This document shows, piece after piece, positions 14,445 through 19,767 of a stretch of 64,000 nt of DNA. Below the pieces are notes generated by a model that saw nothing but the letters and a program-made list of their open reading frames with translations, was not told where the DNA came from and did no database searches. This DNA comes from a phage. The translations under genes and the position numbers were made by a program. The stretch's first letter is position 1, and the number at the start of each line of letters is the position of its first letter. The DNA lies in the sequence record PZ053912.1. One strand, 5' to 3'.

Positions 14445-15443
14445 TTATGATACTAATTCAATCCATGCAGGACGCAGAACATCTTGCACCATTCGGACTA
14501 ATTCTTTCTTAACAAGATTCGGATTATCAGATGTTGTTAATACAATACCTTCACGAGAAGTTTCTTCCAGAATATCTTGAACAGTCAATCCCATCACTTT
14601 GCCAAAATCTTTTGGCGTTACAGTCCCAATCTTAGAAATCACATTATTAACACGATTTAATGTAACATAACAAGCTAGAACATCAAGCAAGTTTTTGTCA
14701 ATTTCGGTTAATGGAACCTGAGTTTTAATAGGCTTATCAGACTTTTTCTTTTCACTGAATTTAGAGTTCTTGCACTTAATAGCTACACGAGTACCGTTTG
14801 GCAACCATTTAGGGAAACAAGGCTTCAGAACATAACCTTCTGCTGTATTATCGCCAATAACATTAGCATCAAATACACAATTATTTGCTTCTACAAGATC
14901 TTCTGACGCAGTAGCATTATAAGCGGCTAAGACAGAATCAAGGTCGTTTGGAATCATGATAAGAGCATCGAATGTTCCACGACCGAGCATTGGTGCCATT
15001 TTAAAACCGAATTCATTACAGAAATCTTGCATTTCGTAATCGGTCAAATACGTATTATCACCACTTTCTGTATTGATAAGGATATCGAACACATAAAAAT
15101 CTTTTTCACCGTAGTCAACACCTTTCTGGATTCCACCACCAGCGAATTCACCGAATACTTGATATGATACGGCTCGAGCTGTGTGCATTAATTCCTGAAC
15201 GGCTTTAATAGCTTTATCATACTTCTTGAGTACGACTTCATAACCATAAAAATCTTCTGCTGGAAGAATAGGGCCTGTGCGCTTGGCGCATGTGACGTTG
15301 TCACGTTCAATTATTAACGAGAAGTTGGTCCCATGGATTTTCTCACGTGCTACCCAAACACCAGTAGTCAAACCATTAGTGTAGAGTTTTTCAATAAACT
15401 TAGAGTTGTAGTGGTTTTCAAGACTGCTGTATTTCTTAAACAT
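14445..15443 (-). CDS. rnlB: RNA ligase 2 (RnlB)
   Basis: 332 aa; N-terminus [21 protein letters not shown]...[10 protein letters not shown] (KxHG adenylation motif) and C-terminus ...[12 protein letters not shown] match remembered T4 Rnl2. Confidence 0.95.
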
Positions 15444-15561
15444 AAATCACCATTATAAATAATAATATCAAATAATTAGCAGAGACTCTATCTCTGACCA
15501 GATGTTTAATTTGAATGGATAGAACCTAGATTCATTATACCATCAAAAAATGTAAAGCATA

Positions 15562-15813
15562 TTAGAACTTGATTTCTATCCAGTGCCCATCACGTTGGTC
15601 GTGATTAATTTTATACTGAAAGCCATTATCACGTAACCACTGCCCGACTTGCTCTGTGATAGTTAAATCATTCTTTGATGGATAGTATGTGAATTGTGTC
15701 TGACCTTTGTCAGCAGCTTTCTCTGCTATTACTGAGAAGTTAGTAATAAAATCACTCAACAAATTGGCTTTAGTGGCCAGAGCCCTTTCTCTTAATTCCT
15801 GTGCAAAACTCAT
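15562..15813 (-). CDS. hypothetical protein (83 aa; 24.2-like position)
   Basis: ORF in rnlB-hoc interval, overlaps next gene by 4 nt. Confidence 0.55.
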   Translation of the reverse strand: MSFAQELRERALATKANLLSDFITNFSVIAEKAADKGQTQFTYYPSKNDLTITEQVGQWLRDNGFQYKINHDQRDGHWIEIKF

Positions 15814-16016
15814 TTCTTCACCTTTTTGTTAATCAAACGTTTACGGTATACAACTTTTTCTTTTGCTTTAAACTTTGACCGAGCTGTCTCGGCTTTAGTC
15901 CATAGTAATCCAACTTCTTTAGGTTGTAAACCGATTTTTTGAGCAATTTCTACGAATGAAAATCCCGCCTCGTGTAATGTATAAACTTCAACTTCAGCTC
16001 TCATAATCAATCCCAT
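15810..16016 (-). CDS. hypothetical small protein with HTH-like segment (68 aa; 24.3-like position)
   Basis: ORF with FSFVEIAQKIGLQPKEV helix-turn-helix-like segment and basic C-terminus. Confidence 0.5.
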   Translation of the reverse strand: MGLIMRAEVEVYTLHEAGFSFVEIAQKIGLQPKEVGLLWTKAETARSKFKAKEKVVYRKRLINKKVKK

Positions 16017-16085
16017 ATTATTTGGTTTGTGCCATTATACACATCAATCTCAAGTTGTGTTTTGTATGCTTTAAAAACGAAGAAA

Positions 16086-16099
16086 GGGGCCGAAGCCCC
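16086..16099 (-). terminator. terminator hairpin after hoc
   Basis: ggggcCGAAgcccc; minus-strand reading is followed by a U-rich tract. Confidence 0.55.
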
Positions 16100-16105
16100 T
16101 TACGA

Positions 16106-17524
16106 TTATGGATATGTATAGATGATACCAGTTTCCAAAGCAGTTTTATGGATGATGTATCCATTACGTGATTCTTGAACATCAACTTCTGGATAGTCTT
16201 TCATCATCTTCTGAAGGGTGTAACGATGCAGGTAATATTTACTATCTGGGTCGTCAGTTTTCCAATCTTTACCTTCTTCAGTCATTTTTTGGATTTCATC
16301 CATAACCCACCAACCGCACCAGATGTAAGCTGAAGTACGATGTGGAAGAGGATGAACATAAGGTAGTTCACCTTCTGGTTCTGGAGCAACTTTATCAGTT
16401 ACCTGAACTTGACCTTCTGCTGTAATAGTTTTGCTATCGTAATCAGTTGCAGTAATAGTTGCAGTAACTTCAATAGTTTGACTTCCAATAGATGATGTAT
16501 CAACGGTGTATACATTAGTTGACCCTTCTACAGGAGAAGAATCTTTCTTCCATGAATACGTAATTTGTGCTTCTTCCGGAGCACCCGTAACGTTAGCAGT
16601 AAATGTAGCCGAAGCATCTTGCTGAACGTTAATAGAAGGAGGAGTCAATGTAACCTGTGGATTCATTGTCTTCTTATTAACCGTTAATGATACTTCATTC
16701 GAAGTAACTTCCTTTGCATCATAATCTGTCGCAGTTACTTGGGCTACACATTTAATTCTTTTTACACCACTTGTAGTTGGAGTATAGCTAAATGTAGAGT
16801 TAGTTTCTCCACCAACCTGTGAATCATCTACATACCACTGGTACGTAGCAGACGCTCCAGCCGGTTGAGAAGCTAAGGCAGCAGTAAATTGAACTGGGGT
16901 TCCAATTACTCCAGCTGAAGGACTATTGGGAGTTACTGCCAAGGTAGTTGTCTGCGTCTTTTTATTAACTGTTAATGATACTTCATTAGAAATAACGCTT
17001 AGTGCATCATAATCTGTCGCAGTTACTTGAGCTACACACTTGATTTTTTTAACTCCGCTTGTGTCAGGAGTGTAATTGAATGTAGCAGAAGTTGCTTCGT
17101 CCACAGGAGAACCGTCAACGTGCCATTGATACGTAGCGTTTGCACCTGATGGTTGTGAAGCTAAGGCAGCGGTAAATTCAATTGGAGTTCCAATCACTCC
17201 AGCATCAGGGCTACCAGGAGTTACAGCTAAGGTAGTTGTCTGCGTCTTATTTTGAACTGTAATAGTTGTACTAATTTCAGCTGTTTCAGCTTCAGAGTCA
17301 GGAATAGTATTTGTTGCAACAACTTTAATAGTCTTTTGACCAGCAGGTCCTTTTAACACATAATCAAAAGTTTCTGCTGATCCTACTTGAGGAGCATCGT
17401 CTACACTCCATGCATAAGTAATAGTTCCACCTCCAGTTTCACCACTGGGAGTAGCAGTAAACTGCTTAGTCTCATCTATAACTCCAGTAGGTGTTTTAGG
17501 AGTTATATCAACTGTAAAAGCCAT
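16106..17524 (-). CDS. hoc: highly immunogenic outer capsid protein Hoc (472 aa, Ig-like repeats)
   Basis: Repeated ~95 aa Ig-like modules (TTTLAVTP..ATYQW..VKxIKCVAQVTATDYDA) plus C-terminal capsid-binding-like tail ending GIIYTYP; position between 24-region and inh. Confidence 0.9.
   Translation of the reverse strand: MAFTVDITPKTPTGVIDETKQFTATPSGETGGGTITYAWSVDDAPQVGSAETFDYVLKGPAGQKTIKVVATNTIPDSEAETAEISTTITVQNKTQTTTLAVTPGSPDAGVIGTPIEFTAALASQPSGANATYQWHVDGSPVDEATSATFNYTPDTSGVKKIKCVAQVTATDYDALSVISNEVSLTVNKKTQTTTLAVTPNSPSAGVIGTPVQFTAALASQPAGASATYQWYVDDSQVGGETNSTFSYTPTTSGVKRIKCVAQVTATDYDAKEVTSNEVSLTVNKKTMNPQVTLTPPSINVQQDASATFTANVTGAPEEAQITYSWKKDSSPVEGSTNVYTVDTSSIGSQTIEVTATITATDYDSKTITAEGQVQVTDKVAPEPEGELPYVHPLPHRTSAYIWCGWWVMDEIQKMTEEGKDWKTDDPDSKYYLHRYTLQKMMKDYPEVDVQESRNGYIIHKTALETGIIYTYP
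16670..17248 (-). repeat. tandem direct duplication (2 x ~290 bp) inside hoc encoding adjacent Ig-like domains
   Basis: Two consecutive ~290 bp units with clearly similar sequence ending in the same ggtagttgtctgcgtctt block. Confidence 0.8.
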
Positions 17525-17533
17525 AAGTTATCC

Positions 17534-18202
17534 TTATTTTAATGTTACGAAAGAAGAATTACGAGTTTCACGAATTAGAACTGATCCATCGCGATTAATA
17601 TAATAAATTAAACTAAATAATGTTTGGTGAGCAGAAGCATGCACAAAACTAGTTGGGCGAGATTTCCAATCTGGGGTTTCGGCTATCCATTGATAAATCC
17701 ACCAAGGAACAGTAACATATCCAGGGCCTTTGCCTAATTTAATGAGTGTAGGACTAAAATTTTCAGGCAGAACAAATTTTACTTCTTTATTTACCTCTGA
17801 CTCAGGCTCTTTTTCAGATTCAACAACCTGAGTAATTGCTTCTTCGAATTTATCATGGTCGAATTCTTTTTCTTGTTCGACAACTTCTAATACTTCAACT
17901 TGTTCTGTTGGAGAATCAAACAACAGAATAGCTTCTTCTTTAACTTCTTCGTTGGTGAAATTAACACCGTCTACATCATCTGCGGCAGTAATTAAATCGG
18001 TGATAGATAATCCATCAGTTTCAGGTAATGGTTCATCAGCCAGTGCGTTAAGAGCTTCTTCGATATCAATAACAATATTATCGAATGATTTTGTTTTCTT
18101 AACACTAATGCCAAATTGTTCCGCATATTCAAACAGTTTAGCTTTGGCTTCCTTTTTATCAGAAAGAGCACGTAACTCTTCAATATAGTCTTTATCGATC
18201 AT
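17534..18202 (-). CDS. inh: inhibitor of prohead protease (Inh)
   Basis: 222 aa acidic protein adjacent to hoc, size and position as T4 inh. Confidence 0.7.
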   Translation of the reverse strand: MIDKDYIEELRALSDKKEAKAKLFEYAEQFGISVKKTKSFDNIVIDIEEALNALADEPLPETDGLSITDLITAADDVDGVNFTNEEVKEEAILLFDSPTEQVEVLEVVEQEKEFDHDKFEEAITQVVESEKEPESEVNKEVKFVLPENFSPTLIKLGKGPGYVTVPWWIYQWIAETPDWKSRPTSFVHASAHQTLFSLIYYINRDGSVLIRETRNSSFVTLK

Positions 18203-18215
18203 GGTATTTCCTCAT

Positions 18216-18223
18216 TATAAATA
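18216..18223 (+). promoter_or_regulatory. late promoter (TATAAATA) for uvsW
   Basis: Exact TATAAATA about 30 nt upstream of uvsW ATG. Confidence 0.6.
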
Positions 18224-18252
18224 TAACTATATTTATTACATGGTAATTTGAC

Positions 18253-19767
18253 ATGACTGACATTAAAGTACATTTTTATGATTTTAGTCACGTGCGCATT
18301 GAATGCGACGAAAGTACGTTTTACGAACTTCGTGACTTTTTTAGCTTTGAAGCTGACGGGTATAAATTTAACCCAAAATATCGCTATGGGCAATGGGATG
18401 GTAGAATTCGACTTTTAGATTACAACCGTTTGTTACCATATGGACTTGTAGGACAAATAAAAAAGTTCTGTAACAATATGAGTTATTCTGTATGGATTGA
18501 CCCTAAAATCTTTGAGACCGAAGACCTTACCAGGGAAGATTTTGACGCATGGCTTTCTAAACAAGAGATTTATTCGGGCAACGCCAAAATCGAACCACAT
18601 TGGTATCAAAAAGATGCAGTATATGAAGGACTAGTTAATCGTCGTCGAATTTTAAACCTTCCGACATCAGCAGGTAAATCACTAATCCAAGCACTTTTAG
18701 CTCGATATTATCTAGAGAACTATGAAGGTAAAATTCTCATTATCGTCCCTACAACAGCATTGACAACCCAGATGGCTAATGATTTTGTTGATTATCGCTT
18801 GTTTAGTCATTCGATGATTAAGAAAATTGGCGGTGGTGCTGATAAAGCAGACAGAGCTAAAAACGACGCTCCAATTATTGTTGGCACATGGCAAACGGTA
18901 GTTAAGCAGCCTAAAGAATGGTTCTCTCAATTCGGTATGATGATGAACGATGAATGCCACTTAGCAACAGGCAAAAGTATTTCTTCAATCATCTCAGGAT
19001 TAAATAATTGCATGTTTAAATTCGGTTTATCTGGCTCATTAAGAGACGGAAAAGCCAATGTAATGCAGTACGTAGGTATGTTCGGCGAAATCTTCCGTCC
19101 TGTTAGCACGTCTAAATTAATGGAAGACGGACAGGTAACTGAGCTTAAGATTAATAGTATTTTCCTTCGTTATCCGGACGAATTCACCGTTAAATTAAAA
19201 GGTAAAACATACCAAGAAGAAGTTAAAATTATTACCGGACTAAAACGACGTACAAAGTGGATTGCTCAACTGTCAGTCAAATTGGCTAAGAAAGACGAGA
19301 ACGCCTTTGTAATGTTTAAACACGTTACACACGGTAAAGAAATATTTGAAGCTATTAAAGAGCTTGGATACGAAAAAGTTTATTACGTATCAGGTGAAGT
19401 TGATACTGAAACACGTAACGCGCTTAAAGTCATGGCAGAAAATGGTAAAGGCATTATTATTGTCGCATCATATGGAGTATTCTCTACTGGTATTTCAGTC
19501 AAGAATCTTCATCATGTTATTTTCGCCCATGGTGTTAAATCAAAAATTATCGTACTTCAAACCGTAGGTCGCGTGCTTCGTAAGCATGGTTCTAAAGCTG
19601 TTGCTACAGTTTGGGATCTCATCGATGACGCAGGTGTAAAACCTAAATCATTAAATACTAAAAAGAAGTATACTCATCTTAATTACTTGTTAAAACACGG
19701 TATTGATCGTATCCAACGTTACGCTGATGAGAAATTTAACTATGTAATGAAAACAATTAATTTATAA
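18253..19767 (+). CDS. uvsW: UvsW helicase (SF2 ATPase)
   Basis: 504 aa; N-terminus MTDIKVHFYDFSHVRIECDESTFYELRDFF as T4 UvsW; helicase motifs (TSAGKS, DECH); late promoter upstream. Confidence 0.95.
   Translation: MTDIKVHFYDFSHVRIECDESTFYELRDFFSFEADGYKFNPKYRYGQWDGRIRLLDYNRLLPYGLVGQIKKFCNNMSYSVWIDPKIFETEDLTREDFDAWLSKQEIYSGNAKIEPHWYQKDAVYEGLVNRRRILNLPTSAGKSLIQALLARYYLENYEGKILIIVPTTALTTQMANDFVDYRLFSHSMIKKIGGGADKADRAKNDAPIIVGTWQTVVKQPKEWFSQFGMMMNDECHLATGKSISSIISGLNNCMFKFGLSGSLRDGKANVMQYVGMFGEIFRPVSTSKLMEDGQVTELKINSIFLRYPDEFTVKLKGKTYQEEVKIITGLKRRTKWIAQLSVKLAKKDENAFVMFKHVTHGKEIFEAIKELGYEKVYYVSGEVDTETRNALKVMAENGKGIIIVASYGVFSTGISVKNLHHVIFAHGVKSKIIVLQTVGRVLRKHGSKAVATVWDLIDDAGVKPKSLNTKKKYTHLNYLLKHGIDRIQRYADEKFNYVMKTINL

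Follow-up and report, generated by a model that had tools for sequence, protein, structure and literature searches.

The hoc gene in the phage DNA analysed here (64,000 nucleotides of sequence record PZ053912.1, called the window throughout) carries two head-to-tail copies, a and b, of the unit that encodes the second Ig-like domain of its product. It is probably a functional allele with four Ig-like domains, whose a-b array goes back to an ancient duplication and has since been contracted, expanded and reshuffled by recombination, the shorter gene of T4 representing a contraction. The gene and its putative signals lie on the minus strand:

16106..17524, minus strand: hoc coding sequence, an intact single ORF of 472 aa plus stop (predicted 50.6 kDa, pI 4.5)
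17531..17535, minus strand: Shine-Dalgarno-like AAGGA, 6 nt 5' of the ATG of hoc, in overlap with the stop codon of inh, read from the sequence
16073..16099, minus strand: intrinsic-terminator-like hairpin GGGGC-TTCG-GCCCC with a T-rich run, 7 nt past the hoc stop, read from the sequence

In T4-like phages Hoc is present on the mature capsid at one copy per hexamer centre of the major capsid protein, from which it extends a string of Ig-like domains outward, and is dispensable for growth. A phmmer search of PDB sequences aligned the window protein with T4 Hoc (5vf3_Z) at E = 8.7e-224, pairing residues 1–115 with T4 1–115 and residues 189–472 with T4 93–376; T4 Hoc has 376 aa in that entry, and the T4 GT7 CDS measures 1131 nt. 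ORF length and alignment both agree with the preliminary description of this DNA, which had named the gene hoc and compared its length of 472 aa with about 376 aa for T4 Hoc. The surroundings are likewise those of hoc: inh (17534–18202) and homologues of gp24.3, gp24.2 and rnlB flank the gene, uvsW lies past inh and gp24 is near, a T4-like order that matches T4 itself as well as annotated records with 98–100% flank identity. The C-terminal domain is homologous to T4 residues ~281–376, differs from T4 Hoc by about one residue and keeps all published gp23-contact residues: Y293, H295, R300, W309, W310 and the loop E355-SRNG-359 of T4 Hoc (PMC10385173) are Y389, H391, R396, W405, W406 and E451-SRNG-455 in the window. 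In the NBG2 and Kha5h records, a terminator is annotated at the equivalent place 3' of hoc. Small overlapping ORFs inside hoc, on both strands, were set aside as unsupported. Judged by its sequence, the window gene appears to be a functional allele of a T4-type capsid decoration gene of the non-essential kind.

A repeat search found a direct, gap-free tandem of 2 x 288 nt at 16668–16955 and 16956–17243 with 77% identity, and Tandem Repeats Finder gave a period of 288, 2.1 copies and a score of 711. Put into codon register, unit a comprises aa 93–188 (17248–16961) and unit b aa 189–284 (16960–16673); together, at 16673–17248, they coincide almost exactly with the tandem duplication of 2 x ~290 bp first placed at 16670–17248. 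The units match at 221 of 288 nt and 76 of 96 aa (77% and 79%), far above the nucleotide identity of ~25–30% expected by chance, and their differences are distributed 12/15/40 over codon positions 1/2/3. Both units open with KTQTTTLAVTP and close with SNEVSLTVNK. The duplication is in frame and head to tail, 288 nt making 96 codons, and it is cut exactly at the domain boundaries (model limits 93–187 and 189–283). Because the T4 alignment covers all but one unit, the additional 96 aa amount to one more copy of domain 2. The comparison of hoc with itself and with T4, proposed at the outset, in this way returned both an internal 288-nt repeat and an alignment complete except for one unit. The extra length had been attributed to Ig-like sequence, correctly, as what is added is one further Ig-like domain, in frame and in tandem; the more diverged Ig-like domains said to flank the repeat are also there, domains 1 and 3 (D1 and D3) being 31–42% identical to the units and to one another. 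Only the wording 'nearly identical' was overstated, as the copies differ at 23% of nucleotides and 21% of residues. Unit b is nearer to T4 D2 (91% at the nucleotide level) than unit a is (80%), unit b being the counterpart of T4 domain 2 and unit a the one that T4 is without. The domains map as follows:

17249..17524, minus strand: Ig-like domain 1, aa 1–92; AlphaFold2 beta-sandwich, pLDDT 85–93; holds E29 and G33
16961..17248, minus strand: domain-2 unit a, aa 93–188, absent from T4; from repeat searches, AlphaFold2 pLDDT 93–96; loop cassette VDGSPVDEATSAT
17038..17120, minus strand: central cassette of unit a (~unit nt 128–211, aa ~135–163), containing all fixed a/b diagnostic sites; loops after the strand aa 129–136
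17044..17050, minus strand: A7 homopolymer in unit a (codons K-K), from sequence comparison of the locus
16673..16960, minus strand: domain-2 unit b, aa 189–284, counterpart of T4 domain 2; aligns with T4 93–188; loop cassette VDDSQVGGETNST
16750..16832, minus strand: corresponding central cassette in unit b (aa ~231–259), from diagnostic sites and between-type distances
16385..16672, minus strand: Ig-like domain 3, aa 285–380; sub-threshold Pfam Ig_3 and I-set matches, AlphaFold2; D342 corresponds to T4 D246
16109..16384, minus strand: C-terminal capsid-binding domain, aa 381–472; from the T4 alignment and residue check, AlphaFold2 being of low confidence here

In Pfam searches PKD (41.3 bits, cut-off 23.5) and Ig_2 scored above threshold, Ig_3 and I-set just below it. 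An AlphaFold2 model, computed from an input alignment of 53 sequences, has four beta-sandwich domains (1–91, 93–187, 189–283 and 285–376; pLDDT 85–96) and a poorly modelled C-terminal domain. This domain prediction, also advised in the preliminary description, speaks for its Ig-like assignment. Foldseek against the PDB returned multi-Ig proteins (Dscam, ICAM-5 D1–D4, NCAM) together with RB49 Hoc (3SHS, E = 3.7e-10), so that the N-terminal string of Ig-like domains typical of Hoc is found by Pfam, AlphaFold2 and Foldseek alike. The window Hoc consists of four Ig-like domains and a C-terminal anchor, five domains in all. At the A-run equivalent to that in unit a, the PM105 record has an indel in each of its two units.

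The age of the array can be read from synonymous divergence. Between units a and b of the window dS is about 0.93 and dN/dS 0.157; between the window and T4 the corresponding values are 0.46 and 0.259 for D1, 0.26 and 0.163 for unit b against D2, 0.41 and 0.222 for D3, and 0.24 and 0.019 for the C-terminal domain. The divergence of a from b is thus 2–4 times that of window hoc from T4 hoc (dS 0.24–0.46), which means that the two units split before the two genes did. The low dN/dS (~0.16) and the 12/15/40 codon-position pattern point to constraint on both copies. The duplication is old, and both units are under purifying selection. These values contradict a recent, lineage-specific duplication yielding two nearly identical domains, which was the implicit reading of the preliminary description. 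Such an event would readily produce a tandem, in-frame repeat with a unit of exactly one domain, but copies that are 77% identical in nucleotides and 79% in residues, with a dS of ~0.93, are not of recent origin, and a and b are each 90–99% identical to units in dozens of other phages, closer than they are to one another. We consider this reading refuted by unit typing, by dS and by the neighbour-joining (NJ) and distance comparison, and give it practically no credence. That the extra unit arose as an artefact of assembly, or is a non-functional insert in decay, is just as hard to believe. Several records of two-unit hoc genes are indeed annotated as split or frameshifted (PM105, PST, NHEP10, FriedrichMiescher); yet the ORF in the window is intact, 77% identity is too divergent for an assembler to have created or collapsed the repeat, numerous independent assemblies share the structure, and the substitution pattern just described indicates constraint on both copies.

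For typing, units from 31 genes were compared as DNA, since only three strict positions separate a from b at the protein level. Identity is 82–95% within types a and b and 73–81% between them, and a third type, c (loop VDGSLVDGETTTT), is present in genes with three units. Arrays of the order a-b were found in the window, pEK20, DCP548, teqsoen, PST, NBG2, Sf21, PM105 and three metagenome or virome contigs, and a-b-c arrays in UGKSEcP1 and the metagenome contig OARM01; protein data add the rarer a-c and b-c. The order a-b(-c) is kept in at least 13 arrays at the DNA level and about 38 at the protein level. Single-copy genes may carry a (Kha5h), b (T4, T2, APCEc01, JK45) or a mixed, chimeric unit (308Ecol101PP, AV117, Nami), and among 79 protein clusters with a single copy 47 are of a-type and 26 of b-type. 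A candidate chimeric single unit, a at its 5' and b at its 3' side, was seen when OZAP01 was compared with IMGVR_3300010279.

The differences between types are not spread evenly over the unit. All 11 fixed a/b diagnostic sites lie in alignment columns 129–211, that is, in the loop cassette of the central ~85 nt. Types differ by a distance of 0.386 in the centre against 0.19–0.23 at the unit ends (0.07–0.15 within types), and at the ends polymorphisms are common to types a and b. Such a distribution is compatible with the ends of the units having been partly homogenised, and from the confinement of fixed differences to the centre, together with the shared polymorphisms of the ends, we infer gene conversion, which appears to have blurred the history of the units. 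The exact tracts of a/b identity, of 20, 14, 27 and 17 nt, would serve as substrate for in-register recombination. The NJ tree, a single unbootstrapped, midpoint-rooted tree of 288 nt of recombining sequence, read alongside nearest neighbours and within- and between-type distances, separates a from (b, c), and c falls outside the clade that unites all b units. Both clades contain single-copy units scattered among those of arrays.

The longer gene is by no means rare. Among the best 120 clusters of a protein search, 79 have 376 aa, 29 have 472 aa (some 440 member sequences by the sum of the listed counts) and eight have 568 or 570 aa. Hoc lengths in this gene pool step by 96 aa, through 282, 376, 472 and 568 aa, the forms of 282–283 aa being without D3 and matching a published variant, that of PNJ-9 (PMC11853027). 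In the phage-record collection hoc was matched in 659 records. An evenly spread sample of 60 of them contained the 1419-nt form 16 times, the 1131-nt form about 35 times and a form of ~850 nt a few times, and a 60-nt query spanning the junction of a and b (E ≤ 1e-10) was matched in at least 62 records, a lower bound given the 28-nt exact word of megablast. These counts suggest that the 472-aa form occurs in about a quarter or more of hoc-bearing records. Most of the DNA came from individual phage records, with four loci of the same gene pool from IMG/VR and eight from metagenomes. Shigella phage KNP5, with a 2072-nt span in a 193-kb record and only a 3' hoc fragment annotated, was excluded as unreliable. 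Deposited 472-aa genes are annotated as 'PKD domain protein', 'Hoc-like head decoration' or 'capsid and scaffold protein', the duplication passing without comment. The longer hoc of the window is a common, ordinary natural allele class in T4-like coliphages.

Over 20 kb around hoc the window is 98.7% identical to Escherichia phage vB_EcoM-pEK20 (Mosigvirus JS09), and ~155 records match the same stretch at 95–99%; these matches place it in a JS09-like Mosigvirus, distinct from T4 itself. A sliding comparison across the 4.4-kb hoc locus revealed that uvsW, inh and the genes downstream of hoc are 97–100% identical between JS09-like phages and the window, the differences lying in the interior of hoc. 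APCEc01 and JK45 are without unit a, their single unit and D3 being 97–99% identical to b and D3 of the window (99% for the b unit); 308Ecol101PP and AV117 are without unit b, and their unit aligns with a at 83–93%. The same 288-nt length difference recurs among the JS09-like relatives in the 20-kb matches. Repeat-number polymorphism among isolates, which the preliminary description had recommended looking for, is therefore present between near-isogenic phages. The reverse situation is seen in the Tequatrovirus teqsoen, whose flanks are 60–88% identical to the window whereas hoc is 81–96% and unit a 95–96% identical; NBG2 displays the same contrast. High identity in hoc despite low identity of the flanks shows that the gene is exchanged between the two genera as a cassette, whose limits lie approximately where inh ends and at the terminator of hoc.

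These comparisons bear directly on the direction of change. The description of hoc as 'enlarged' took T4 for the baseline, but a and b are two deep DNA types, each of which also occurs singly. Since both are found in single copy and also together with c in the 568-aa forms, T4 is questionable as a starting point, and its b-only gene could equally be a contracted array. The mechanism that we favour would begin with an ancient tandem duplication giving a and b, followed by a second giving c, so that an array was formed. Homologous recombination in register, between units and with co-infecting relatives, would then contract, expand and reshuffle the array, and the 376-aa form of T4 would be a product of contraction and not the ancestor. 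The opposite course is that a, b and later c were diverged single-copy alleles, joined in tandem by rare out-of-register recombination during co-infection, in which case the single-copy gene is ancestral and the 472-aa gene truly enlarged. In keeping with this, single-copy genes of both types are common (47 and 26 in the 79 clusters mentioned above), hoc is exchanged between genera (87–96% identity to Tequatrovirus inside hoc against 50–80% in the flanks), and unit a of the window is nearer to teqsoen (95–96%) than to most near-isogenic relatives (83–89%). Stacking of this kind, however, requires an illegitimate join that is exactly in frame at a domain boundary; the conserved order a-b(-c) and the interspersion of single-copy units in the tree fit repeated contraction at least equally well; and the independent tandem duplications of D2 or D3 in other Tevenvirinae are instances in which hoc domains were duplicated in place. 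We regard it as unlikely. L035, at 62% identity the closest outgroup found, possesses two middle domains, which are only 40% identical to one another and about equidistant from a, b and c; as they are not orthologous to a or b, L035 does not polarise gain against loss. Of the two courses we prefer that of an old a-b-c array contracted time and again, a direction of change that is inferred.

A bolder version of the same idea, possible in our view although doubtful, is that in the gene pool shared by Tequatrovirus and JS09-like Mosigvirus the domain-2 region is a variable-number cassette array of one to three units of types a, b and c that recombines often, even among near-isogenic phages, and so tunes the reach and ligand specificity of the fibre quickly and reversibly; T4 Hoc would then be the contracted form of a laboratory lineage. 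Variation in repeat number in bacterial surface adhesins offers a likeness to such an array.

Hoc is the main display platform in vaccine and nanoparticle work with T4, and the protein behind the phage-adherence-to-mucus model. Its C-terminal domain in T4 binds the centres of gp23 hexamers, at 155 sites per capsid, and its Ig-like domains are strung into an approximately linear fibre of 18 nm (PMC10385173). On the T4 scale of 18 nm for four domains, the additional unit would make the fibre longer by roughly the length of one Ig domain, ~4–4.5 nm, and unit a would provide another loop surface, unlike the first, through which glycans or cell surfaces could be bound weakly. E29 and G33 were reported as critical for MUC2 binding in PNJ-6 Hoc (PMC11150434), S183-L184-T185 as a MUC2 contact in PNJ-9 Hoc and D246N as a mucin-adaptation mutation of T4 Hoc (both PMC11853027). 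The window Hoc has E29, G33, D342 (T4 D246) and SLT twice, at 183–185 and 279–281; this is conservation of residues only, the binding data being those of T4, PNJ-6 and PNJ-9 Hoc. Hoc occurs naturally in coliphages as discrete forms with two, three, four or five Ig-like domains, assembled from exchangeable cassettes of domain 2, and the 376-aa Hoc of T4 is not a safe baseline for the family. The near-isogenic sets that differ only in the cassette (pEK20, APCEc01/JK45 and 308Ecol101PP/AV117) are ready material for questions of mucus adherence, immunogenicity and dispersal. For the window itself nothing fundamental changes, its hoc being an unexceptional example of a widespread class of alleles.

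Variation in the number of Ig-like domains among Hoc proteins is already in the literature (PMC10385173, PMC11150434, PMC11853027). Homologues have from 1 to 10 such domains, the Hoc of Serratia phage Muldoon reaching 1174 aa (PMC10385173), and T4-like phages differ in both number and arrangement (PMC11150434). On the a-b or a-b-c array of domain 2 we found no paper in the literature, only general statements that the domain number of Hoc varies, and a preprint on phage contingency loci (10.1101/2025.10.21.683753) makes no mention of hoc. Domain-number variation is accordingly known, and the 472-aa form is already in many deposited genomes.

Among the known relatives, T4 Hoc (PDB 5vf3 and 8t1x; Fokine et al. 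2023, PMC10385173) belongs to the same family and has the same gene position and capsid-binding residues. When D1, unit b, D3 and the C-terminal domain of the window are set against it, 340 of 376 residues match, and both proteins are acidic (pI 4.5 in the window, 4.7 in T4). They differ in the extra 96-aa unit of type a, which in the window stands between D1 and the T4-like domain 2 and gives four Ig-like domains instead of three. The other 472-aa Hocs (pEK20/pJBK, DCP548, teqsoen, NBG2, PST, phiD1, Sf21 and others, from JS09-like Mosigvirus and Tequatrovirus) have the same a-b architecture with point differences only; at the nucleotide level the hoc genes of pEK20 and the window share 98.2% identity, and the pJBK/pEK20 protein P0009 is 99% identical to the window protein. 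In the 568/570-aa Hocs of UGKSEcP1, UGKSEcP2 and OARM01, a and b stand in the window order and a third unit, c, makes five Ig-like domains. At the other extreme, PNJ-9 Hoc and its relatives (~282 aa; Fu et al. 2024, PMC11853027) share D1, a domain-2 unit and the C-terminal domain with the window, but have one unit and are without D3, where the window has two units and D3.

More distant Hocs follow the same plan. RB49 Hoc is only 22% identical to T4 Hoc (PMC10385173), and its N-terminal domains (3SHS) form the same linear Ig-like string as in the window while being too diverged for phmmer at E ≤ 0.01. The Hocs of Klebsiella, Enterobacter and Salmonella T4-like phages, ~37–50% identical to the window, occur in forms of 279–282, 367–377, 468–472 and 565 aa and, like the window, combine a conserved C-terminal anchor with a variable Ig string; the longer ones (468–565 aa) contain tandem duplicates of D2 (71–76% aa identity) and/or D3 (59–79%), duplications that are independent of that in the window and sometimes affect D3 and not D2. 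The tandem D2 and D3 duplicates in these other Tevenvirinae Hocs make tandem duplication of Ig-like domains a recurrent mode of Hoc evolution.

The hoc gene of the window (16106-17524, minus strand) is, by pairwise sequence identities, a mosaic island in its locus. The region at about 16100-17560 is 81-96% identical to its counterparts in the Tequatrovirus phages teqsoen and NBG2, whereas the flanks at 14600-16000 and 17560-19000, which carry inh, uvsW, the gp24.3/24.2-like genes and rnlB, reach only about 50-88% identity to the same two phages. Within the JS09-like group the contrast is the opposite: here the flanks are 97-100% identical to the window, while the Ig-like region of hoc is only 83-93% identical. 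Taken together, these contrasts suggest that phages of different genera have exchanged the hoc cassette. The downstream edge of the high-similarity cassette coincides with a hairpin:

16073-16099, minus strand: strong GC hairpin (GGGGC-TTCG-GCCCC, with a UUCG-type loop) followed by a T run, directly after hoc.

Terminators annotated in NBG2 and Kha5h occupy the position equivalent to this hairpin.

On the upstream side, a homing endonuclease gene, segE, separates inh from uvsW in T4, PST, NBG2 and Kha5h, and the annotations of PST and NBG2 split uvsW around it. No segE is present in the inh-uvsW intergenic region of the window (18203-18252), nor at this place in the other JS09-like phages, and uvsW is intact (504 aa).

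Several of the deposited hoc genes with two tandem copies of domain 2 (units a and b, 288 nt each) are disrupted. One place where this occurs corresponds to a homopolymer in the window:

17044-17050, inside unit a: run of seven A residues.

At the equivalent A-run, hoc of PM105 carries +1 and -1 indels, one per unit, at nt ~1980 and ~2267 of its locus, spaced exactly 288 nt apart. The PST gene has a +1 insertion close to its 5' end (locus nt ~1539), hoc of NHEP10 and FriedrichMiescher spans 1420 nt with a two-part annotation, and the T2 record AP018813 has the gene in three fragments, with gaps that include an 11-nt deletion. Such records could reflect sequencing or polishing errors in a repeat, or they could represent genuine inactivation of a dispensable gene.

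In Shigella phage KNP5 (NC_055713.1, 2001-4072 of the locus), the hoc match falls into three pieces over 2072 nt, and the Hoc-like annotation covers only a 3' fragment. At 193.6 kb the record is unusually long for a Tequatrovirus, and the locus may be misassembled or its hoc disrupted. The metagenome contig ULRM01008302.1 (1501-2912) encodes a hoc relative with 62% identity and four Ig-like domains, the middle two only 40% identical to one another, and has a frameshift at about codon 205. A second metagenome contig, OBRH01000009.1 (1501-3198), encodes a 565-aa Hoc in which domains 2 and 3 are each tandemly duplicated. Its Ig region is similar to those of T4-like phages of Salmonella, Klebsiella and Enterobacter, and the final ~290 nt, encoding the C-terminal domain, are 92-98% identical to hoc of E. 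coli Tequatrovirus phages; by these similarities, this Hoc is a domain-level chimera.
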